Source: an uncultured delta proteobacterium
Lineage (GTDB): Bacteria; Desulfobacterota; RBG-13-43-22
Direction of reading: 5' to 3'
Assembly (NCBI GenBank): GCA_963711835.1
Contig: CAVQFQ010000006.1
Location: 1-64,000, forward strand
Length of the DNA stretch: 64,000 bases
The notes below the pieces were generated by a model. The model worked only from the letters and a program-made list of their open reading frames with translations, did no database searches and had not been told where the DNA came from. The translations under genes were made by a program, and so were the position numbers. Shown here piece after piece: positions 10,877 to 56,412 of the stretch (its first letter is position 1; every line of letters begins with the position of its first letter).

Positions 10877-12192
10877 TTACCAGACCATTTCCTTCAAGAC
10901 TTCAACCAGGCGAACCATCCCAAGAGTATCGAGTTTGCAGTACTCGAAAAGGGCCTGGCGGGTCTTGGCGATTTCTTCTTGGCTGGCCATCCCTTCCATC
11001 TCCAAATAGGAATACCCCGCCGTCCCGCCGTCGCTTATCTCAAGGCCCTCATAGGAAAGATAGGGAATCAAGGCAGGCAAGACGGCTTTGATGGAAGCCG
11101 AACCAGCCATCTCCCAGTGATAGACGTCGCGGGCCTTAAACGGGACCATCAGGTCAACGAGGTTGGTCCGGATGGATTCGATTGCTTGGGTCTTGTCGGA
11201 AAACCAGTCGCTGAGAACAGCCAACCGTCCGGCTTCGAAGGCCTTGTTATAACCCACAACACAGGCTCCACCCGGAACGGCGGCCAGGAGGTTTTCGGGG
11301 AGGTCCTTCCGGGGGTCCTTCCCGGGAATTCCCAAATAGCAATAGTGCCTCAGCTCCCCCCCTCTTTTCCCTCGACATGGAGCGAGAACTGGAAGGGGAC
11401 AGGCTGGTATGGCCGGGTTCCATCAAAGAGGGGAACCGGGACAAAGAGGGTCTCAAAGTCGAGGAAGGCGAGGGGATACCAGAGCGAGGCCAGGAAGTGG
11501 TTTAGCTTCTCACGGTCGATCCAGAGGTCTTTCTTAAGGAAGCGTTCGAGCTGGAACTGCTGGGAAGGCGAGAGGCGGTCAAACGGGACATCTTCCAACT
11601 TCAAGATCCCCTGGTTGTAAAAGTCGAAAGGATTGGCTCCTCGCCCGCCCAATTCAAAAACCGAATAGGCCGGTAAATGGTCCCAGCAATGGCCGACAAA
11701 GTCACACTCATAGGGGTCGTGACACTGGGGGCCGATGGCGGTTTCCGGGAGGCCTCGCTTCAGCATTTCCCGGAGGTCTTGAATCTTGTCCTGGATATAG
11801 GGCTGCTTGTCGGTCACAACCCCCGTCAGGTCCTTGACGGCAAATAGCTTTTCCGGTTCGAGCTCCCTCTGGCGGACATATTGGTTGTTGATATGGACCA
11901 AGAAGGCCCGGTCGACCGGATAGCCTAAGCCCTTTAGGACGTAGAACTGAATGGCTATATCGTCCTGGTAATAAGCTTTTTCGCCGGTCGAATTCTTGAC
12001 TTCATAAATCCCCCAGCCGTCCTTGCCACAGGTTAGGATATCCGGTCTGGCAAAAACCCCGTTATGGCTAAAGGCTGGCTCATATAGGACTGGAGTCCCG
12101 GCTTTCAAAAAGTCTTGGGTCTGGCGGAGCTGATCCCCGAGGGAAAGGGTTTCGTAAGCGATGCCTAACCCCTCAGGGAAAAGCCGGGTGGT
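10877..12192 (-). pseudogene. DUF2779-type protein (PD-(D/E)XK nuclease-like plus RNase H-like domain), 5'-truncated and frameshifted
   Basis: RPDIL..EVKNST, DIAIQ, LDFET, PYQPVPFQFSLH, SIKAVLPAL, YCKLDT; frameshift in a G7 run near 11356. Confidence 0.75.
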
Positions 12193-12962
12193 TTGACTCC
12201 GGGGAAGGTCTTATCCCATCTCCGAGACCAGGCGAAGGGGCGGTCCGGCAATGCGGCCAATAAGGATCGGAAAAACCTTGTGGCTGCCTGGAACTGGGGA
12301 AGGAAATACCTGGAAGGATTCCCCAATGTCAATCCCTGTCTCGTCGACAGGTTCCCTGAGATTAGGAAACCGAGGTATGTTCCCCCTGAAAAGGATTTCT
12401 GGAAGGTCTATGAAACCGCCAAAGGCCAGGACCAGGTAATGCTCTTGGCCTACCTTCACCTCGGAGCTCGGCGGGGGAACTCTTCCGGTTGACCTGGGAA
12501 GACATCGACTTTGGTCAGGCGAGGGTAAGGTTATGGACGAGGAAACGCCAGGAGGGGACTTATGAGTATGATTGGCTCCCGATGACCGACGATCTTTTTA
12601 ACACCCTCGTCGCCCATCGCCAGGGGAACAAATCCGAATGGGTCTTCGTTAATCCCGAGACCGGAGGCCCATATCAGTATCGGATCCACTGGATGAAGCG
12701 ACTCGCCAACCGGGCCAAGGTCAGGGAGTTTGGGATTCATGCTATCCGCCATTTGACGGCCAGCATATTAGCCCAATCCAACGTCCCGATGGTTCAAATC
12801 CAGGCTATCCTTAGGCATAAAAGCCTTTCGACGACAGAGAGATATATTAAAAGGTTGGATAGCTTGAAGTCGGCTCTCCAGCTCCTTTCGCGGAGGAAAA
12901 AGCCGTCAGTCGAGCCGTCAAGGGGAGGTTTTGAACGAGTGGCTTCGGAGGCAGTTGGTTAA
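12193..12962 (+). mobile_element. Tyrosine recombinase/integrase, 5'-truncated and frameshifted, next to the tRNA-Glu 3' end
   Basis: LGARRG(E), HAIRH, ILRHKSLSTTERY catalytic motifs; frameshift near 12478. Confidence 0.85.
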
Positions 12963-12987
12963 CTTGTTTGATTTATTAATTTAATTT

Positions 12988-13062
12988 TGGTGGTCCCAAC
13001 GGGGATCGAACCCGTGTTACCGGCGTGAGAGGCCGATGTCCTAACCGCTAGACGATGGGACC
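12988..13062 (-). tRNA. tRNA-Glu(CTC)
   Basis: GGTCCCATCGTCTAGCGGTTAGGAC...CT-CTC-AC...GGTTCGATCCC...CCA cloverleaf. Confidence 0.95.
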
Positions 13063-13189
13063 TTTAATACGAAAACAGATGCTGGATAAAGACAAAAAGC
13101 GATACTGGATAAAAACAAAAATTTAACTCTCAGACCCGGTTAACTGCTTCAAGGGTTTCTGCCCCGGGTCTGGGGGTTTGGCTAAAGAC

Positions 13190-13263
13190 TGGCTGGGGGA
13201 CAGGGATTCGAACCCCGAAAGGCAGATCCAGAGTCTGCTGTCTTACCGTTAGACGATCCCCCA
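13190..13263 (-). tRNA. tRNA-Gln(CTG)
   Basis: TGGGGGATCGTCTAACGGTAAGAC...CT-CTG-GA...GGTTCGAATCC...CCA. Confidence 0.95.
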
Positions 13264-14871: not shown

Positions 14872-14899
14872 TTGACAAATCAATAGGGTTTACTATAAT
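14872..14899 (+). promoter_or_regulatory. Sigma70 promoter for the yceD-rpmF-plsX operon
   Basis: TTGACA-N16-TATAAT, 47 nt upstream of the yceD ORF. Confidence 0.7.
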
Positions 14900-14946: not shown

Positions 14947-15495
14947 ATGAAACCTATCCGGGTTGAAGCCATAACCTCTAAGGGCCTTAAAATAGATAGT
15001 ATTTTGGACCTGGAATGGCTGAAGGAGGTTTTAGCGGAAAGACCCCTGGGGTTTTCTCTCCAGGGACCATTAAGCGTCAGCGGAGAAGTACGAAAGACCG
15101 GGCAGGCCATTCTTTTTCAGGGAAAGGTTTCCGGGCTGATCGGGCTTACCTGCGGGCGTTGTCTTGAAACCTTTATCAACCCGGTTGATGAATCGGTGAC
15201 CGCCGAGTGGCGTCTGCTATCGCCGCCTTCGGGAAAATCCGGCCCGGAGGGAGCGGGGCAGCAACTGGAAGACCTGGAGACCGGTGCCATACAGGAAGGG
15301 GATCTGGATATTTCGGAAAGGATTTTGGAGGAAATCATCCTGAGTCTGCCGATGCAGCCTTTATGCCGGGCTGCCTGCCAGGGTCTCTGTTCTATCTGCG
15401 GGACCAACAGGAATATTTCCCCCTGTACCTGCAGGACCGACGGCCCATCCCAACCTTTTTCGGCTTTAAAGGAGTTTAAAGTTAAAAAAAGCTAA
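14947..15495 (+). CDS. yceD: YceD/DUF177 family protein
   Basis: CGRCL, LPMQPLCRAACQGLCSICG; upstream of rpmF. Confidence 0.9.
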   Translation: MKPIRVEAITSKGLKIDSILDLEWLKEVLAERPLGFSLQGPLSVSGEVRKTGQAILFQGKVSGLIGLTCGRCLETFINPVDESVTAEWRLLSPPSGKSGPEGAGQQLEDLETGAIQEGDLDISERILEEIILSLPMQPLCRAACQGLCSICGTNRNISPCTCRTDGPSQPFSALKEFKVKKS

Positions 15496-15975: not shown

Positions 15976-17049
15976 TTGGAAACCTTGGAACCCATAAAAA
16001 TTGCCGTTGATGCCATGGGGGGCGATGAGGCTCCTTCAGTTGCGGTCCAAGGGGCCGTCATGGCCGCCAAGGAATTGGCCCTTCCCTTGATTCTGGTGGG
16101 AAACCAGGATCTTATTCGCAGAGAACTGGCCGGGTTGACCTATAATCCCGATTTGATCAGCATCCACCATTGTACCCAGGCGGCCGGCATGGGTGAATCC
16201 CCGATTGAGGTGCTTCGAAAAAAAAAGGACGCCTCCATCCGGGTCGCTATCGATTTGGTCAAGAGTGGGGCGGTCCAGGGGGTAGTCAGTGCCGGGAATT
16301 CCGGGGCTACCATGGCCATCGCTGTCGTTGTTCTGGGGAAACTCCCCGGAGTGGAAAGACCGGCCTTAGGAGCCATCCTGCCCTCCAACCATCCCCCCAC
16401 TCTTTTGATCGACGTGGGTGCCAATGTGGATTGTACCGCCTATCAACTGGTCCAGTTTGCCATTATGGCCGAGACCATGGCCCGGTATATCATGAAAAGG
16501 CCGAATCCCCGGGTCGGTCTTTTGAGTATCGGCGAGGAGGAATTGAAAGGGAACGATTTGGTCCGGCTGACGGCCGAAGGATTGCGCAAGATTCCTTTCA
16601 ATTTCATCGGGAATGTGGAGGGCCGGGACCTCTTTAGCGGCAAGGTCGATGTCATTGTCTGCGATGGTTTTGTGGGCAACATCTGTTTAAAACTGAGCGA
16701 GGGCCTGGCTGATGCCATCGGGGCCATGTTGAAAGAGGAATTAAGTCTTGGTTTCGGTTCCAGGATTGGCTACCTGCTGATGAAGCCGGCTTTCAGGAAT
16801 TTTCAGAAGAAGGTCGATTATGCCGAATACGGCGGTATTCCTCTCCTGGGGGTGAATGGCGTAGTGGTCATCGGGCACGGGTCATCGGGGCCCCTGGCCG
16901 TTATGAACGCCATCCGAGTGGCTAAGGAAGCAATCCGGAGCAGGATTAATGACCATGTCCTGGAAGGGTTGCAGCATTATGAGGCCCATTACAGCAAGAT
17001 GAAAGCCCGCCGTTTCTGGGATACCTTTATGAGGAAAAAAAGTCTTTAA
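15976..17049 (+). CDS. plsX: Phosphate acyltransferase
   Basis: IAVDAMGGD, SAGNSGA, DGFVGN. Confidence 0.97.
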   Translation: METLEPIKIAVDAMGGDEAPSVAVQGAVMAAKELALPLILVGNQDLIRRELAGLTYNPDLISIHHCTQAAGMGESPIEVLRKKKDASIRVAIDLVKSGAVQGVVSAGNSGATMAIAVVVLGKLPGVERPALGAILPSNHPPTLLIDVGANVDCTAYQLVQFAIMAETMARYIMKRPNPRVGLLSIGEEELKGNDLVRLTAEGLRKIPFNFIGNVEGRDLFSGKVDVIVCDGFVGNICLKLSEGLADAIGAMLKEELSLGFGSRIGYLLMKPAFRNFQKKVDYAEYGGIPLLGVNGVVVIGHGSSGPLAVMNAIRVAKEAIRSRINDHVLEGLQHYEAHYSKMKARRFWDTFMRKKSL

Positions 17050-17152
17050 AAGGGCCGAGGGATCGAGGAGCCCGGGATTCAAGAAAAAACAAAAGCCTAA
17101 AAAGGTTTCGCACCAAGTGAACGCATTTGGTCTTAATTAGGAGAGAGGGGCT

Positions 17153-18313
17153 ATGGACTACTTCCTTACTGAAGAGCAACAGATGATCAAGGAGGTGGCG
17201 AGAAAAATCGCCGAAGAGCGGATTAAGCCGCTTAGAGCCGAATTGGATGAAAAAGAGGAGTTTCCCAGGGAATTATTAAAGGTCATTGCCCAGTCCGATC
17301 TTTTCGGAGTTTTTATCCCCCAGGAATACGGGGGGTTTGGCGGGGGGAGTTTCGAAAATTGCCTGGCGGTGGAAGAGTTGAGCCGGGGCTGTTTGGGGGT
17401 TTCGACCAGTTTTGCCGCCAGCGGGTTGGGATCCTACCCGATCCTTTTATACGGGTCGGAGGAGCAGAAGAAGAAATATCTTCCCGAAGTTGCCACCGGG
17501 CGGAAACTGGCGGCCTTCGCCCTGACCGAATCAACCGCCGGCAGTGATGCCGGAGGTATTCTGACCAGCGCCGAACTGAAAGGAAATGAATACGTCCTGA
17601 ACGGGACGAAGCAATGGATTACCAATGCCGGAGAGGCCGACCTCTATTCGGTCATTGCCATCACCGATCGGAGCAAGGGACCTCGCGGGGCCAGCGCCTT
17701 TATCGTGGAAAAAGGAGATCCGGGGTTCGGTTTCGGAAAAAAGGAAAGTAAAATGGGGATCCGGGCCTCGGCCACCGGGGAGCTTATTTTTAATCAGTGC
17801 CGTATTCCCAAAGACCGGCTGCTCGGCCGCGAGGGGATGGGGTTTATCGCCGCCATGAAGACCTTTGATTTATCCCGTCCCGGCGTGGGGGCCCAGGGGG
17901 TAGGACTGGCCCAGGCGGCCTTGGAGGAAGCGATCCAGTTTGCCAGGACCCGGGTCCAGTTCGGGAAACCCATCATGACCTTCCAGGCCATCCAGCATAT
18001 GCTGGCCGATATGGCAACCTTGATCGAAGCGGCCCGGGCCCTGGTTTATTCGGCGGCCCGTTTCATTGACAGCGGGGCCAAGGACGTCTCCAAAATATCG
18101 GCCATGGCCAAAGTCTTTGCCAGCGATGCGGCCATGAAGGTGACCACGGATGCGGTTCAGGTCTTTGGAGGTACGGGCTACATGCGGGACTACCCGGTGG
18201 AAAAGATGATGCGGGATGCCAAGATACTGCAGATCTACGAAGGGACCAATCAGGTCCAGCGAAATATCATCGGTCAGGAATTGAATAAAGAAGGGGGACG
18301 AAAAAAGAGATAA
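17153..18313 (+). CDS. Acyl-CoA dehydrogenase (butyryl-CoA dehydrogenase/CarC-like)
   Basis: FALTESTAGSD, NGTKQWITN, KMGIRAS, RDAKILQIYEGTNQ. Confidence 0.93.
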   Translation: MDYFLTEEQQMIKEVARKIAEERIKPLRAELDEKEEFPRELLKVIAQSDLFGVFIPQEYGGFGGGSFENCLAVEELSRGCLGVSTSFAASGLGSYPILLYGSEEQKKKYLPEVATGRKLAAFALTESTAGSDAGGILTSAELKGNEYVLNGTKQWITNAGEADLYSVIAITDRSKGPRGASAFIVEKGDPGFGFGKKESKMGIRASATGELIFNQCRIPKDRLLGREGMGFIAAMKTFDLSRPGVGAQGVGLAQAALEEAIQFARTRVQFGKPIMTFQAIQHMLADMATLIEAARALVYSAARFIDSGAKDVSKISAMAKVFASDAAMKVTTDAVQVFGGTGYMRDYPVEKMMRDAKILQIYEGTNQVQRNIIGQELNKEGGRKKR

Positions 18314-18453
18314 AACCCTTCCGTTCGGCGAATCTTTCCAATCAGAGTCAATACCTGTTTATTTTCATTGCGGAAACACGAAGGACGCCAAGAAGAAAAA
18401 GTTTAAGTTGAATCGCCGAACGCCGTAACGCCGAACAGTATTGCCGAGTCAAA

Positions 18454-19248
18454 ATGCACATCATCGTCTGTATCAAACAAGTTCCCGATACCAAGCATAT
18501 CAGACTGGATGAAAAGAATCATACGCTTATCCGGGAAGGGGTGGAAAGCATTATCAACCCCTTTGATATGTACGCCCTGGAAGAAGCCTTGCGGATTCGA
18601 GATCAACGGGGAGGAAAAGTAACGGTTCTGTCCATGGGCCCTCCCCAGACCGAATCCTCCTTAAGAGAGGCCATTTCCTACGGAGCCGATGAAGCGGTAT
18701 TGCTTTCGGATCGTGCTTTCGCCGGGGCCGACACCTGGGCGACGTCCTATACCCTGGCCAAAGGGGTGGAAAAGATAGCCCCCTTTGATCTGATTCTCTG
18801 CGGGAAACAGGCGGTGGACGGCGATACCGCCCAGGTGGGACCGGGATTGGCGGAACGATTGGCCATCCCCTATATAACCTGGGTTCGCAAAATCGAGGCC
18901 ATTGAGGATGGGATGATCCGGGCCCAACGGCTGATGGATGACGGGTATGACCGATTGGAAAGCCCCTTGCCGGCCCTATTGACCGTAGTCAAGGAGATCA
19001 ATGAACCCCGGGTCCCTTCCCTAAAAGGGAAGATGAGGGCCAAGACCCAGAAAATCCCCTTTTACGGCCTGGTGGACATTGCCGCCGATCCGGAACAGGT
19101 GGGCTTGAAGGGCTCGGCTACCCAGGTGATCAAAGTTTTCCCTCCACCCCGCTTGAAAGAGAGGGTCTGGATTCAGGGGAGCGCGGAGGAACAGGTTTCC
19201 CAGATTTTGGACAACCTCAAGATCCTTAAACTGCTTCCAGGGGCATAG
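18454..19248 (+). CDS. etfB: Electron transfer flavoprotein beta subunit
   Basis: CIKQVPD, REGVESIINPFD, DRAFAGADT, DGDTAQVGP. Confidence 0.95.
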   Translation: MHIIVCIKQVPDTKHIRLDEKNHTLIREGVESIINPFDMYALEEALRIRDQRGGKVTVLSMGPPQTESSLREAISYGADEAVLLSDRAFAGADTWATSYTLAKGVEKIAPFDLILCGKQAVDGDTAQVGPGLAERLAIPYITWVRKIEAIEDGMIRAQRLMDDGYDRLESPLPALLTVVKEINEPRVPSLKGKMRAKTQKIPFYGLVDIAADPEQVGLKGSATQVIKVFPPPRLKERVWIQGSAEEQVSQILDNLKILKLLPGA

Positions 19249-19268
19249 CCATTCTTAGTTGATACGAT

Positions 19269-20468
19269 GTGAGTATGGAAACCCTGATTGACTTGGAAAA
19301 ATGTACCGGCTGTGAGGCCTGCCTTTCGGCCTGCCCTTTCGGGGCCTTGGAGATACGGGACGAAAAGGCCTTTGTCACTGACCAGTGCAGCCTCTGCGGC
19401 GCCTGCCAGGAAATTTGTCCTGAGGGAGCCATTACCGTTCCTTCGATTAAAGAAGGTTCAATGGCTGATGAATACCGGGGGATCCTGGTGTTTGCCGAGC
19501 AACGATTGGGCCGGATGGCCGAGGTGGCCTTTGAGTTGCTGCACAAGGGCCGGGAGTTGGCCGATACCTTAAAGGTCCCTTTATCGGCGGCCTTGCTTGG
19601 AAAAGACGTGTTCTCGGCAGCCGGCACCCTGATTGAATACGGGGCAGATCTGGTTTATACGGCAGATCACCCTTCTTTGGAAGGCTTTACCGATGACCTC
19701 TACGGCCAGGTGCTGACCGGCATGATCCGAGCCTACCGGCCTGAAATCGTTCTGGCCGGGGCCACCTCCATCGGCAGGTCCTTTATCCCCAGAGTGGCCA
19801 CCCAGATCGGGACCGGGTTGACGGCCGATTGTACCGAACTATCCATAGACCTGGAAAAACGTCTTTTACTGCAGACCCGTCCGGCCTTTGGAGGGAATAT
19901 CATGGCCACCATTATCTGCCCTCAGAAGAGGCCCCAGATGGCCACGGTCAGACCCAAGGTCATTAAAAAGGGTCTTCCCCAACCCGGCCGCTTGGGCCAG
20001 GTTGTCCCCTTTCCCCTGGAGGGAATAAGTCTGGCCGGAAAAACAAAACTCCTTGAAATCATTGAGGAGGTCGGCGAGAAGGTGCGCCTGGCCGAGGCGG
20101 ATGTTATCGTGGCCGGGGGGCGGGGACTGCAGGACGAAAAGAATTTTTCCTTGGTCAGGGAGTTGGCCGGCCTGCTCAATGCCGCCGTGGGTGCCTCCCG
20201 AGGGGTTGTGGATGCCGGATGGATTTCCTATGCCCACCAGGTGGGGCAAACGGGTAAAACCGTGGCTCCGAAACTTTATATCGCCATCGGCTTATCCGGA
20301 GCCGTCCAGCATCTGGTGGGTATGCAATCTTCGGATACCATTGTAGCCATCAATAATGACCCCCATGCCCCTATCTTTGATGTCGCCACTTATGGTATGG
20401 TGGGAGACCTTTTTAAGATCGTACCGGAAATGATACGGCAACTCAAAGGGCGGATGGGAAGCACCTAA
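19269..20468 (+). CDS. etfA: Electron transfer flavoprotein alpha subunit with N-terminal 2x[4Fe-4S] ferredoxin domain
   Basis: [12 protein letters not shown] and [12 protein letters not shown], then [26 protein letters not shown]. Confidence 0.95.
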
Positions 20469-20502
20469 TGTTCTGAATGGGGGTTCAAGGTGTCGGAATG
20501 CC

Positions 20503-20622
20503 GATACCGGATACTTGATACTGGATAAAGACCAAAACCGATATCGGGAATTCGATAATACCCGTTTGATTACAGCAAAGAACAACAACAGTTCGAATAA
20601 CCAGCATCCAGTATCCAGTATC
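20503..20622. repeat. Inverted heptamer-type tandem repeats (GATACTG / CAGTATC)
   Basis: GATACCGGATACTTGATACTGGATAAAG...CCAGCATCCAGTATCCAGTATC; related GATACTGGATAAA copies at ~13078-13115. Confidence 0.55.
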
Positions 20623-20647
20623 AATGGAATATAAAGAGGATACCAAG

Positions 20648-21394
20648 ATGAATGAAAACCGACGAGTCATTTTAATTACCGGAGCCTCCCGGGGCATCGG
20701 ACGGGCCATAGCTTTGCGACTGGCCCAGCCGGGCACGGTCCTGCTCCTAAACCATTATGACCCCGAGCCGAAGGCCGCCGAGGAAACCTTGGGCGAGGTG
20801 GAGGCCCGGGGGGCCCAGGGTAAAATCTATTATTTTAACGTGGCTGATTTCCAGGAAGTCCAGTCTCAAATCGAAGGCATGCTCCGGGATTGGGGGAAGA
20901 TCGACAGCCTGATCAATAATGCCGGGATCACCCGGGATACCCTGCTGATGCGGATGAAGGAAGAGGACTGGGATCGGGTCCTGAGCATTAATCTAAAGGG
21001 GGTCTTTAATTGCACCCAGGCCGTGATTCGGTCCATGACCAAAAACAAAAGAGGGAAAATTGTGGCTATCTCGTCGGTGGTGGGGGCCATAGGAAATGCC
21101 GGACAGGCCAATTATGCCGCTTCAAAGGCCGGGGTGATAGGCTTTACTAAATCCGTGGCCAAAGAAGTGGCCGGGCGGGGGATCCAGGTCAATGCCATTG
21201 CTCCGGGATTTATCGAGACCGAAATGACGGCCGTCCTCCCGGAAAATGTCCGCCTGGACTTTTTGCGATCCATCCCCATGGGCCGGAGCGGGCAACCGGA
21301 AGAGGTGGCTGAATTGGCGGCTTTTCTGCTTTCCGAGGCCTCCAACTATATCACCGGCCAGGTGATCCATATCAATGGGGGACTCTATATGTAA
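20648..21394 (+). CDS. fabG: 3-oxoacyl-ACP reductase
   Basis: TGASRGIG, NNAGITRD, YAASKAG. Confidence 0.96.
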   Translation: MNENRRVILITGASRGIGRAIALRLAQPGTVLLLNHYDPEPKAAEETLGEVEARGAQGKIYYFNVADFQEVQSQIEGMLRDWGKIDSLINNAGITRDTLLMRMKEEDWDRVLSINLKGVFNCTQAVIRSMTKNKRGKIVAISSVVGAIGNAGQANYAASKAGVIGFTKSVAKEVAGRGIQVNAIAPGFIETEMTAVLPENVRLDFLRSIPMGRSGQPEEVAELAAFLLSEASNYITGQVIHINGGLYM

Positions 21395-21561
21395 GCCGCT
21401 GTGAGGGACTGGGCTTCAAACTGGCAATGGGCAGGGGGAAATATTTGCTTGCAGAAATCACCTAAGATCATTTAGAAGGAAGATAACCATTTCAAGGACA
21501 ACAGCAGGAGGCTTACTCCAGGTCCAATACGAAGGAATGAAGAAAGGAGGCTATTAAAGGT

Positions 21562-21795
21562 ATGACTGTAGAAGAAAGGGTGAAAGCCATCATATGTGAG
21601 CAGTTGAGCGTGGCCGAGGAGGATGTGGTTCCTCAGGCTTCTTTTGTGGACGATCTGGGAGCGGATTCCCTGGATCTGGTGGAAATGATTATGGCTATGG
21701 AGGAGGCCTTTAATATTTCTATCGCCGACGAGGATGCGGAAAAGATAAAAACGGTTCATGATGCCATAGAGTATATTAAAGCCCGTTCCCAATAA
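21562..21795 (+). CDS. acpP: Acyl carrier protein
   Basis: DLGADSLD phosphopantetheine site. Confidence 0.97.
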
Positions 21796-21829
21796 CCGGG
21801 GATCTAACCACTGATCAGGAGGAGCAATC

Positions 21830-23068
21830 TTGAAAAAGCGCGTTGTGGTCACCGGGTTGGGGTTGGTCACCCCGGTAGGGATTGGGGTTCATGAAAGCTG
21901 GGACAACCTCTGCCGGGGCAAATCGGGACTTGGGCCGATTACGCATTTTGATGCCAGTGCCTTCCGGACCCGAATCGCCGGGGAGGTCAAGAACTTTAAA
22001 GCCCAAGACTTCGTCGCCCAGAAGATGATCAAACGACTGGATGTCTTCGTCCATTTTGCCCTGGCAGCGGCTCGAATGGCCATGGAGCAATCCGGCTTAA
22101 CCATCACCTCCGAGTTGGCTCCTTACGTGGGCGTGATGACCGGTTGCGGACTGGGCGGCCTCAGGACCTTGGAAGATACCCACACGGTTCTCCTGTCCCG
22201 AGGACCGGATCGTATCAGTCCCTTTTTTATACCTATGCTGATCGCCAACATGGCCCCCGGCCAGATCGCTATCGAATACGGGGCCAAGGGGCCCAATCTG
22301 GCTATCGAGACGGCCTGCGCGGCCGGAAACCATGCCATCGGGGACTCCTATAAATTAATCCAAAGGGGCACGGCCAAGGCCATGATCTGCGGCGGGGTCG
22401 AGGCCGTCATTACGCCGTTAGCCGTAGGGGGATTTTGTGCCATGCGGGCCCTTTCGACCAGAAACGAGGAGCCCGAAAAGGCCTCCCGGCCCTTTGATAA
22501 AGATCGGGATGGCTTTGTGGTCGCCGAGGGCAGCGGGATCATGATCCTGGAGGAATTGGAATTTGCCCAGGAGCGGGGTGCCCCGATCCTGGCTGAAATA
22601 GCGGGCTACGGTTTAACGGGGGATGCCTACCACATGACCGCGCCCTCTCCTGACGGGGATGGGGCCATCCGCTGCATGAAAATGGCCTTGGATGATGCCG
22701 GCCTCAACCCGGAGGCGGTTGATTACATTAATGCCCATGGGACCTCCACCGATTTGAACGATACGGCGGAGACCTTGGCCATTAAAGCCGTTTTTAAAGA
22801 ACACAGTTACAAGCTGGCTGTCAGTTCCACCAAATCCATGACCGGGCATCTCTTGGGCGGCGCCGGTGGGGTGGAATCGGTTTTTTCCGTGCTGACCATC
22901 CGGGACGGCCTAATTCCGCCGACCATTAATCTGGATCATCCCGATCCGCAGTGCGATTTGGATTACGTTCCCGGCCAGGCCCGCCGGGCCGATGTCAGGG
23001 TGGCCATGACCAATTCTTTCGGGTTCGGGGGAACGAATGCGGTGCTTATTTTTAAGAAATACACCTGA
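21830..23068 (+). CDS. fabF: Beta-ketoacyl-ACP synthase II
   Basis: RVVVTGLG, TACAAG, NAHGTST, NSFGFGG. Confidence 0.97.
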   Translation: MKKRVVVTGLGLVTPVGIGVHESWDNLCRGKSGLGPITHFDASAFRTRIAGEVKNFKAQDFVAQKMIKRLDVFVHFALAAARMAMEQSGLTITSELAPYVGVMTGCGLGGLRTLEDTHTVLLSRGPDRISPFFIPMLIANMAPGQIAIEYGAKGPNLAIETACAAGNHAIGDSYKLIQRGTAKAMICGGVEAVITPLAVGGFCAMRALSTRNEEPEKASRPFDKDRDGFVVAEGSGIMILEELEFAQERGAPILAEIAGYGLTGDAYHMTAPSPDGDGAIRCMKMALDDAGLNPEAVDYINAHGTSTDLNDTAETLAIKAVFKEHSYKLAVSSTKSMTGHLLGGAGGVESVFSVLTIRDGLIPPTINLDHPDPQCDLDYVPGQARRADVRVAMTNSFGFGGTNAVLIFKKYT

Positions 23069-54591: not shown

Positions 54592-56412
54592 TTAAAAGGC
54601 ATCCTCCGGGATGTTCAGTGCCGAGGTATCTTCCTGCTGGAAAGAGATATGCCGGGAAAAAACATTGGTTAAAATGTTGCGGCAGAAAAAGCGCACGGTC
54701 TCGATCTTGCCCTGATAAAAGGTTCCGCCGGCTGAAGACGGATCGGTGGTTTTCAGTTTGTCGCGGGCCAGCAGACCTTGTTCGAGCATCAATTGGGCCA
54801 GGACCGCTTCGGACATGCATTCCAGGAAGCGGGTGGCAGCCAGAGGAATAAGGTTCAGACGACCCTCCTGGAAGTATTGCATGAAGCATTTGGCATAATC
54901 GCCCAGGACCTCACCGGCCTTATAAAGCAGGGTGAAGTCCGGGGCGAAGTCGGGATCATTTTGATGGCCTTGGGCGAAGGCCAGAAGCTTGCCCAGCCAG
55001 CCCTGAAAAACCGCACCGCCGGACATCATCAGCTTGCGGCCGATCAAATCCAGGGATTGGATATAGGTAGTGCCTTCATAGATGGAGGCGCTTTTTACAT
55101 CCCGGGCGTACTGCTCAACCGGAAATTCCCGGCAGTAGCCGACGCCGCCCAGAACTTGGATGGCTTCCCGGCAAAGCAGGTAGGCGAAGTCGGAGCAGTA
55201 GGCCTTGACTAAGGGCGTCAGGAGATCTACCCATTGACCGGCTTCCCGGCGGACCGCCTCGTCGGGGTCGCAGCGGGAAACATCGGTGTTGTAATATAGC
55301 TTCATGATAAAGCCCCGCATGGCCTCGGTGCCGGCCTTGAGCATCATGAGCATACGGCGGACATCTTCGTGTTCGACGATCCTGACCCGCGGCCCCGAAC
55401 GGTTGGTGAAAAGCGGTCCCTGAACCCGTTCTTTGGCGTAGAAGCGGGCGGCGTCGTACGCGGCCGTGGCCACACCCTCGGCCAGAAGGCCGGTGCCGAT
55501 CCGGGCTTCGTTCATCATTTGAAACATCTTGGCCATACCGGTCTGGGGGTCTCCCAGGAGGATGCCCCGGCAGCGGCCGTTTTCGCCGAAGCTGAGGCCG
55601 CAGGTGGCGGAGCCGTGCAGGCCCATCTTGTGTTCGATGTTGGTGCAGAAGACGTCGTTGGGTTCTCCTAATGATCCGTCCGGGTTGACCCAGATTTTGG
55701 GTACGATGAAGAGGCTGATGCCTTTGGTTCCCCGAGGGGCGCCCTCGATCCGGCCCAGGACCAGGTGGATGATGTTTTTGGTCAAGTCCTGTTCCCCGCT
55801 GCTGATAAAACGCTTGGTTCCTTCGATCTTGTAAAACCGGGAATCGCCGGACGAGGGGTCCGGCGTGGCCTTAGTCTTGGTGTATCCCACATCACTTCCG
55901 GCATCCGGCTCGGTCAGACACATGGTTCCGCCCCAGATGCCGTTATACATCTTTTCGCAAAAGAGGGCTTTGTCCTTCTCGGTCCCGAAACTCTCGATCA
56001 GGTGGCTGGCCCCAACCGCCAGGCCGGAGTAGATTTTTATGGCCGAGTTGGCGCTGATAAAGTATTCGGCTACCTGGCCGTAGATGGTAAGCGGTAAACC
56101 CTGGCCGCCGTACTCCGCTGAAACGGCCAGGCTGAACCAGCCGTTTTCCGAGAGGATCTTCCAGCAGTCATGGAAAGAAGCCGGGACCTTTACTTTTCCG
56201 TTGTCATAAAGCAGGCCCTGCTGGTCACCGTCCTGCAGGGTCGGGCCGAGGGCTTCTTTGGCCACTTTGTAGCCTTCCTCGAGGATCATTTTGAAATCCT
56301 CCAGGCTGAAGTCCTTAAAGGCCTCGTAGGTAAGCAGTTTTTCCAGGTCCAGGTATTCAAAAAGCACAAATTTAGGATCGCGGTCATCGCGCCTGAAAAA
56401 ATTCAATCCCAT
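54592..56412 (-). CDS. Long-form acyl-CoA dehydrogenase (~600 aa family)
   Basis: GTMCLTEP.AGSD, GTKRFIS, EHKMG, MFQMMNEAR, IYEGT. Confidence 0.93.
   Translation of the reverse strand: MGLNFFRRDDRDPKFVLFEYLDLEKLLTYEAFKDFSLEDFKMILEEGYKVAKEALGPTLQDGDQQGLLYDNGKVKVPASFHDCWKILSENGWFSLAVSAEYGGQGLPLTIYGQVAEYFISANSAIKIYSGLAVGASHLIESFGTEKDKALFCEKMYNGIWGGTMCLTEPDAGSDVGYTKTKATPDPSSGDSRFYKIEGTKRFISSGEQDLTKNIIHLVLGRIEGAPRGTKGISLFIVPKIWVNPDGSLGEPNDVFCTNIEHKMGLHGSATCGLSFGENGRCRGILLGDPQTGMAKMFQMMNEARIGTGLLAEGVATAAYDAARFYAKERVQGPLFTNRSGPRVRIVEHEDVRRMLMMLKAGTEAMRGFIMKLYYNTDVSRCDPDEAVRREAGQWVDLLTPLVKAYCSDFAYLLCREAIQVLGGVGYCREFPVEQYARDVKSASIYEGTTYIQSLDLIGRKLMMSGGAVFQGWLGKLLAFAQGHQNDPDFAPDFTLLYKAGEVLGDYAKCFMQYFQEGRLNLIPLAATRFLECMSEAVLAQLMLEQGLLARDKLKTTDPSSAGGTFYQGKIETVRFFCRNILTNVFSRHISFQQEDTSALNIPEDAF

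Follow-up and report, generated by a model that had tools for sequence, protein, structure and literature searches.

An acyl-CoA dehydrogenase-family flavoenzyme and its electron-transfer flavoprotein as a candidate enoyl-ACP reductase in the fatty acid synthesis cluster of an uncultured Desulfobacterota bacterium

A 64,000 nt stretch of contig CAVQFQ010000006.1 (assembly GCA_963711835.1), from an uncultured delta proteobacterium of the Desulfobacterota and referred to here as the window, carries a fatty acid synthesis (FAS) cluster in which plsX is followed by genes for an acyl-CoA dehydrogenase (ACAD)-family flavoenzyme (17153..18313, + strand, 386 aa) and for the two subunits of an electron-transfer flavoprotein (ETF), etfB (18454..19248, +, 264 aa) and etfA (19269..20468, +, 399 aa). 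On the genomic evidence, this ACAD-ETF trio is probably the enoyl-acyl carrier protein (ACP) reductase of the pathway, fed by the ETF and used in place of FabI or FabK. That the trio has both this role and electron bifurcation in this genome is a more tentative proposal, falling a little short of an even chance. No other step of FAS has as many alternative enzymes as enoyl-ACP reduction; to our knowledge, none of those described is present in many anaerobes.

The ACAD gene is directly after plsX in all 15 loci from the same family (86–93% identity). In 17 regions from other families the cluster has this same ACAD in 10 (67–77%), a FabK-like gene in two, FabI in one, nothing in three, and a contig end in one. 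Species genomes were also scanned, and of the best 80 loci a core fab gene (plsX, fabH, fabD, acpP or fabF) is within 8 kb in 61; 56 have etfB, and FabI is not found within 8 kb of the ACAD in any of them. These loci are from Desulfobulbales, Syntrophobacteraceae, Thermodesulfatator, Nitrospirota, Actinomycetota and Bacillota. Where context was checked in carriers of the clade within the host phylum (52 of 74), the ACAD is in the fab cluster in 47. The linkage to plsX and the fab genes that the earlier note on this DNA had seen in a single window is thus conserved, far beyond chance.

Three layouts recur (G, C, L and f numbers are our labels for genomes, contigs, loci and families). The first is plsX-fabH-ACAD-etfB-etfA-fabD-fabG-acpP-fabF, the second is the same without fabH and/or fabD, as in the window, and the third is plsX-ACAD-fabD without etf genes. 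ACAD and fabD are direct neighbours in 19 cases, separated by 5–147 nt, and are 2.0–2.1 kb apart in three more. In the first layout the trio is flanked by fabH and fabD, which shows that it is inserted between them and does not replace them. The same slot, plsX-[fabH]-X-fabD, holds FabI in two genomes (G025, G127), a FabK-type gene in six (G022, G034, G045, G064, G069 and G131, where the contig ends before fabD) and FabK in two Nitrospirota loci (L269, L271). Because other genomes carry fabI or fabK there, this is the enoyl-reductase slot, a description that fits better than the 'fabH-fabD slot' of the earlier note.

Two variants of the cluster were seen in passing. In L214:2838-9760 (G029), which has no plsX, the order is rpmF-ACAD-(S-adenosylmethionine methyltransferase)-etfB-(PEMT-like membrane methyltransferase)-etfA-fabG-acpP, with similar gaps in L215 and L216; the inserts were identified for L214. 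In the actinobacterial locus L087 the cluster is full, trio included, and acpP and fabF are separated by an NMO-family gene.

The distribution of the clade was compared with that of known enoyl-ACP reductases in an even set of 151 genomes of the host phylum, with a profile match at E≤1e-150 taken as the clade (76 genomes, 74 counted). Left out of the carriers were G022 and G045, whose best E of about 1e-152 is set apart from the next, 4e-167; both have FabK in the slot, and their inclusion would raise the overlap with FabK by two and leave that with FabI unchanged. The searches for known reductases covered FabI and FabK in both phyla and FabV in the host phylum; across the 151 genomes 12–16 candidates were scored per genome, with misses possible in gene-rich genomes.

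The clade is present in 74 of the 151 genomes and FabI in 24, with both in only one (G021), and the comparison at family level is 1/26 against 15/44; the Fisher p values, 5e-7 and 0.003 respectively, are overstated because related genomes are not independent. In a sample of 91 Nitrospirota genomes there are 47 with the clade, 35 with FabI and four with FabK above cut-off, with no overlap, and six with none of these. No FabI, FabV or FabK-like match, the last at E≤1e-85, was found in 62 of the 74 carriers in the host phylum. FabK-like matches at E≤1e-85 are present in 28 of the 151 genomes (10/74 carriers vs 18/77 others, p 0.14), although none of the six genomes with FabK in the slot was counted as a carrier. 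The anti-correlation with known reductases for which the earlier note had suggested a test is seen for FabI, which is nearly exclusive with the clade in two phyla, but not for FabK-like genes. Across these genomes the operon position is filled and known reductases are replaced, as a functional enoyl-ACP reductase would do, with G021 and G151 as exceptions. The proposed replacement of FabI, FabK and FabV is supported by linkage, by the absence of FabI and FabV and by the exclusion of FabI, but in the case of FabK the two kinds of gene can occur together.

The strongest argument for the reductase role comes from small genomes. Carriers poor in ACADs were selected (24 genomes with no more than five ACAD candidates each), of which 13, including three closed genomes, have no FabK-like gene at E≤1e-25. 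No crotonase was found in 19 of the 24, and CoA-linked beta-oxidation therefore does not explain the ACAD gene. The closed genomes (G049, G082, G112; 1.6–1.8 Mb) each have one PF13561 short-chain dehydrogenase/reductase (SDR), FabZ, FabD, an AccA-type gene and ACAD-etfB-etfA, with no FabI, FabV, crotonase or FabK-like gene at E≤1e-25. They would appear to make enoyl-ACP, and have no known means to reduce it, nor a crotonase that would supply the ACAD with a CoA substrate. In these three the trio is outside the fab operon, which qualifies the argument.

Malonyl-independent synthesis was considered for these three genomes and G039, in which there is no PF01039 match, and was ruled out, as each has a long AccA-type frame (740–756 aa) that is likely an AccD-AccA fusion and FabD is present in 150 of the 151 genomes. 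Long AccA-type frames, likely fused carboxyltransferases and including G049:C1:897632-898507, are about 610–670 aa in the host family and f18 and 740–870 aa in f30, f20, f36 and others. There is no AccA-type match at E≤1e-10 in 50 of the 151 genomes, such as the closed G036 and G041.

The pathway in this genome (G000; 3.9 Mb, 89% complete, 6.4% contamination) lacks nothing but an enoyl reductase that can be recognised as such. As the earlier note had said, the window itself has no match for fabH, fabD or an enoyl-ACP reductase, but the trio does not stand in for FabH and FabD, since fabD is on C17 and two FabH-type genes are on C16 and C5. FabZ is further along C6, and an AccA-type frame of 606 aa (C22:5481-7301), likely an AccD-AccA fusion, accounts for accDA. 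Both plsX and acpP are single-copy. FabI was not found, none of 30 SDR-type matches being FabI-like; FabI queries gave 23–28% identity and at most 83 bits, compared with 267 bits for two true FabI proteins against each other. FabV was not found either, also with the G151 FabV as the query, in a search that ran without a positive control in this genome and did find FabV in G151. Two FabK/NMO-family genes on C15 score 240 and 221 bits, about half the FabK cut-off of 453, and are 30–40% identical to the slot FabKs, which are 45–63% alike among themselves.

Several observations weigh against the trio as the enoyl-ACP reductase. The two FabK/NMO-family genes are one, and 89% completeness weakens the absence of known reductases from this genome. 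The only FabV in the 151 genomes is in a carrier (G151), G021 has FabI as well as the clade, FabK-like genes do not exclude it, and the overstated p values reduce the force of the FabI exclusion. The Nitrospirota split may be one or a few events, and may follow lifestyle. There is no core fab gene within 8 kb in 19 of the best 80 loci, and the five carriers with the clade outside the fab operon where context was checked are all of family f30. In the Bacillota, the copies in L097:3321-10207 and L118, with etfB-etfA, follow FolD, RACo and a corrinoid protein gene (L097 was scanned), a non-lipid context.

At strict thresholds 36 of the 151 genomes have no FabI, FabV, FabK or clade member, 27 of these having a weaker NMO-family match. 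The other nine (G038, G040, the closed G041, G051, G080, G084, G089, G114 and G138) have not even a weak FabK-like match, and no clade member was found in the five that were searched again. For this reason the lack of a known reductase is not proof by itself, and a further, unrecognised enoyl-ACP reductase may exist in the nine. The FabI of G021 (L144) is divergent, with 38% identity to that of E. coli, and lies apart from the fab cluster, an NMO-like frame being upstream of it.

The flavoenzyme belongs to the ACAD superfamily by its N-terminal, middle and C-terminal domains, its fold and the catalytic glutamate, Glu363, in the YEG loop. ACAD, EtfB and EtfA pass Pfam family cut-offs and no specific NCBIfam cut-off. 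The closest solved relative of the ACAD is Bcd of Clostridioides difficile (5ol2_C), at 55% identity and a TM-score of 0.93 to the structure model (pLDDT 83.8). E363, D239 and R242 are invariant in all 65 rows of the clade alignment. The latter two we take to be CoA-contact positions, but ACADs use the pantetheine arm, which is common to CoA and ACP, and so these residues do not discriminate between them. That an ACAD-family enzyme can act on ACP thioesters is shown by TcsD (10.1101/736256), which favours the proposed role. Within the clade, 31 positions are fixed in 90% or more of the 65 members and are rare in 24 paralogues. Four clade-biased basic positions, R28, K236, R303 and K379, are absent from most paralogues; they would suit the acidic ACP and are candidates for its predicted docking site. 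A quick tree took in 33 clade sequences out of about 110, together with 17 paralogues and seven outside ACADs and no clostridial Bcd; all 33 clade rows fall to the same side of a branch supported at 99, and branches across phyla are short. The nearest paralogue in the same genome is 46% alike.

Three other lines were set aside. A basic C-terminal tail was dropped as a clade marker, as its net charge varies widely around a mean of +1.0 and the comparison with paralogues failed, the anchor of the tail having fallen in the wrong place in many of them. The finding that the ACAD is more conserved than its neighbours (70% vs 50–65%) is biased by the choice of loci on ACAD score. A complex prediction of two copies of the ACAD with AcpP and FAD scored 0.03 against a mark of 0.32, and was not used either way.

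By the proposed mechanism, FabF or FabH, FabG and FabZ would make trans-2-enoyl-ACP, the predicted substrate. NADH would reduce the FAD of EtfB, electrons would go via the FAD of EtfA to that of the ACAD, and the ACAD would add hydride at C3, with Glu363 as the proton donor to C2; the acyl-ACP formed would enter the next cycle or go to PlsX. With bifurcation, by analogy with Bcd/EtfAB and CarCDE, every second electron would probably exit via two [4Fe-4S] clusters to ferredoxin, and the predicted reaction would be 2 NADH + enoyl-ACP + 2 Fd-ox -> acyl-ACP + 2 NAD+ + 2 Fd-red.

The features of EtfA and EtfB described in the earlier note are present, with two CxxCxxCxxxC motifs of a 2x[4Fe-4S] ferredoxin-type domain in the first 60 residues of EtfA, and REG (27), SIINPFD (32) and DGDTAQVGP (122) in EtfB. 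Marks of a bifurcating ETF, in the part of PMC9232219 that was consulted, are DGDTAQVGP, RXFXG and SPT in EtfB and an arginine at N5 of the bifurcating FAD (b-FAD) in EtfA. The b-FAD motif and an RAFAG NAD-binding segment (87) are intact in this EtfB, and Arg204 of EtfA aligns with the arginine of RPAFGG in LctC and CarE. The SPT segment reads SAT (221), SPT being seen in 46 of 74 relatives and SxT in all 74. The exact DGDTAQVGP motif is kept in 66 of 74 clade-linked EtfB sequences and the ferredoxin domain in 61 of 69 EtfA sequences. Bifurcation is therefore plausible from sequence for this genome, where all marks but SPT are intact.

It is not general across carriers. The motif is missing from eight EtfB sequences and the ferredoxin domain from eight EtfA sequences; in family f30 five EtfB read DGETxQVPP and the four EtfA that were read are without the ferredoxin domain. 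Five small or mid-sized genomes with the ACAD-fabD layout were read for an ETF (15 of 18 matches), and two have a motif-bearing pair of etfB and ferredoxin-fused etfA elsewhere. In the other three, G070, G102 and G126, for which every match was read, there is no EtfB with the motif. An excerpt of PMC9232219 also reports that a closely related, motif-bearing ETF can be non-bifurcating. The claim of bifurcation stands for this genome as plausible and falls as a property of the whole clade. It is the ACAD that stays constant in the module, while electron supply varies between lineages. This genome has a second module (G000:C17:239135-242427) of etfB, ferredoxin-fused etfA and ACAD, with DGDTAQIGP in EtfB and a YGGG-type ACAD outside the clade, which adjoins a ferredoxin-domain gene.

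The nearest known systems differ from the module in different parts. CarCDE of Acetobacterium woodii (6FAH) has the same ACAD-etfB-etfA order, the two-cluster ferredoxin domain on EtfA and reduction of an unsaturated thioester, and is the best solved match of EtfB (CarD, E 5e-74) and EtfA (CarE, 6fah_A, E 3e-116, residues 9–392). CarC, however, ranks no higher than 17th among the solved matches of the ACAD (323 bits), the neighbours in the window are fab genes with no caffeate genes seen, and the substrate proposed here is ACP-bound. The closest solved relatives of the ACAD are instead the Bcd/EtfAB enzymes of C. difficile (5OL2) and Acidaminococcus fermentans (4L1F, 4KPU; 52%), which have the catalytic glutamate position and the EtfB motif in common with the module. 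Their EtfA has no ferredoxin domain, the match starting at residue 69–71 of this EtfA, and helix G reads LDGGRIG in Bcd and FDLSRPG in this ACAD. In butyrate fermentation Bcd works alongside crotonase, Hbd and thiolase, whereas most of the small carriers are without the crotonase partner.

AcrABC of Clostridium propionicum is the best NCBIfam model for the ACAD and EtfA and is a model for a non-bifurcating version, with enoyl reduction fed by an ETF, but all three subunits are below cut-off (454/640, 236/475 and 350/600 bits, the second being for EtfB) and its role is fermentative. FabI, FabK, FabV and FabL catalyse the reaction proposed here, and fabI and fabK share the operon position in relatives. 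Their folds are unrelated to an ACAD with ETF-fed FAD: FabI, FabL and FabV are SDR enzymes with direct hydride transfer from NAD(P)H and FabK is an FMN TIM barrel. TcsD, MbtN, RedW and PigA have the ACAD fold and act on carrier-protein thioesters, but are oxidative, belong to secondary metabolism and are not part of an ETF trio in a core fab operon.

The direction of these last enzymes raises the question of whether the ACAD here might oxidise acyl-ACP to trans-2-enoyl-ACP, in a FabX-like back-tracking to unsaturated or modified fatty acids, with the ETF confurcating to NAD+ with reduced ferredoxin and the true reductase being an unrecognised protein. Known ACP-acting ACADs are oxidative, as reported for TcsD in the part of 10.1101/736256 consulted, and as named in NCBIfam for MbtN and RedW. 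A dehydrogenating step exists in type II FAS in the form of FabX, and in the section consulted of PMC8626469 it has so far needed oxygen, so that strict anaerobes could want another acceptor. The nine genomes of 151 without a recognisable reductase would also suggest that an unknown one exists or has been missed. A desaturating enzyme would have no reason to exclude FabI (overlap in 1/74 and 0/47 carriers) or to take the operon place of fabI or fabK, and among solved proteins the nearest are the Bcd enzymes, which are reductive, while the NCBIfam cut-offs for ACP-acting ACADs are not reached (MbtN 70/700, RedW 267/650 and PigA 250/500 bits). This explanation is improbable.

Equally unlikely is a CoA-level enzyme like Bcd/EtfAB, merely co-regulated with the lipid genes, that would reduce enoyl-CoA to a primer for FabH or as a redox sink, or oxidise acyl-CoA in lipid turnover. 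The similarity to C. difficile Bcd, the invariant D239 and R242 and the two Bacillota copies would fit this, as would the content of this genome, which has 41 ACAD matches and rich beta-oxidation clusters. The genome also has six EtfB matches, and crotonase-like genes outside the fab cluster. No crotonase is among the identified fab-cluster genes of the window, and its absence from 19 of the 24 selected carriers leaves them without this means to make or use enoyl-CoA, which also weakens the 'enoyl-CoA primer' variant of the earlier note. Many clusters have no fabH beside the ACAD (it is present in 44 of the 80 best loci), and the exclusion of FabI would be left unexplained.

Cultured carriers are Syntrophobacter fumaroxidans and Desulfogranum marinum DSM 2058. 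In S. fumaroxidans the order Sfum_1369 (L32), Sfum_1371 (annotated as 'butyryl-CoA dehydrogenase'), Sfum_1372-1373 (Etf), Sfum_1374 (FabG) and Sfum_1375 (FabF), as given in an excerpt of PMC5947623, matches the Syntrophobacter locus L111, so that Sfum_1371 is likened to the ACAD here by gene order and not by its own sequence. Its annotation would favour a CoA-level enzyme. In that excerpt, however, the protein is in all 15 proteome samples of an organism that does not grow on butyrate or crotonate, which counts for the reductase role and against a CoA-level enzyme; there the authors assign it no lipid role and present it only as a constitutive 'butyryl-CoA dehydrogenase'.

It is very unlikely that the true reductase is a FabK/NMO protein or a gene missing from the 89% complete assembly, with the ACAD-ETF an accessory passenger in a housekeeping cluster: there are the two FabK/NMO genes on C15 and the non-lipid rpmF, rpiB and glyA in the cluster, but one of the former is among crotonase-like, 3-hydroxyacyl-CoA-dehydrogenase-like and thiolase-like genes (as read from sequence), the other is 84–85% alike to NMO genes adjoining long ACADs in G044 and G078, and NMO/FabK genes are absent at E≤1e-25 from 13 of the 24 selected carriers and at E≤1e-50 from 46 of the 47 Nitrospirota carriers.

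In a full-text literature search with little coverage of subscription papers, no published assignment of enoyl-ACP reduction to an ACAD/ETF was found, and a 2026 review names, in the part consulted, only FabI for this step (PMC13691511). The chemistry would be that of Bcd/EtfAB and CarCDE; the carrier, the pathway and the role would be new. If the trio is the enoyl-ACP reductase, it would close the reductase gap in about half of the genomes sampled in two phyla, with a type of enzyme that has so far been known from catabolism and fermentation, and many 'butyryl-CoA dehydrogenase/Etf' annotations, which in sulfate reducers and syntrophs are now taken as signs of butyrate metabolism or energy conservation, would be corrected. 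Insensitivity to FabI inhibitors such as triclosan would be expected. A different hydrogen-isotope signature in lipids would also be expected because the hydride would pass through flavins, the reductase step having been discussed as a control on lipid 2H (10.1101/039792, in part).

The module might also yield reduced ferredoxin. The energy recovered would probably be small, on the order of 1% to a few percent of what biosynthesis costs the cell (an estimate from cell composition), so that the novelty would be in enzymology more than in yield. In its widest form, the proposal would add one more enoyl-ACP reductase family with no relation to the others, and would make an ACAD-fold enzyme with a bifurcating ETF the standard last step of FAS in about half of two anaerobe-rich phyla, lipid synthesis a source of ferredoxin and this the first core biosynthetic step run by a bifurcating ETF, a possibility that we hold with slightly more doubt than confidence.

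The order of genes in the cluster, all on the + strand, is yceD-rpmF-plsX-ACAD-etfB-etfA-fabG-acpP-fabF-rpiB-glyA, with gaps of 20–256 nt from yceD to rpiB, and that from rpmF to fabF is as the earlier note had given it. A perfect σ70 consensus, TTGACA-16-TATAAT (14872..14899, +, 12/12), is upstream of yceD and is likely, as predicted from this pattern match, the promoter of the cluster. The gene yceD (DUF177; 14947..15495, +, PF02620), the usual head of an rpmF-plsX cluster, is followed by rpmF for ribosomal protein L32 (15752..15934, +, TIGR01031) and plsX for phosphate acyltransferase (15976..17049, +, TIGR00182), each above cut-off. Downstream of the trio, also above cut-off, are fabG for 3-oxoacyl-ACP reductase (20648..21394, +, TIGR01830; the frame is open from 20624), acpP (21562..21795, +, TIGR00517) and fabF for beta-ketoacyl-ACP synthase II (21830..23068, +, TIGR03150). 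A terminator scan was at chance level (16 found against 13.2 expected). Pieces of metatranscriptome contigs with 90–99% identity are present over the cluster (four runs of one sediment study), but as contigs only, with no control from a silent stretch, they were not used as evidence.

Elsewhere in the window, 10877-13263 is probably the remnant of an integrated element; it has a DUF2779 gene in two frames, fragments of integrase (12193-12962) and tRNA-Glu/tRNA-Gln. A long-type acyl-CoA dehydrogenase of 606 aa, 28% identical to the fab-linked ACAD, is encoded at 54592-56412 on the – strand.

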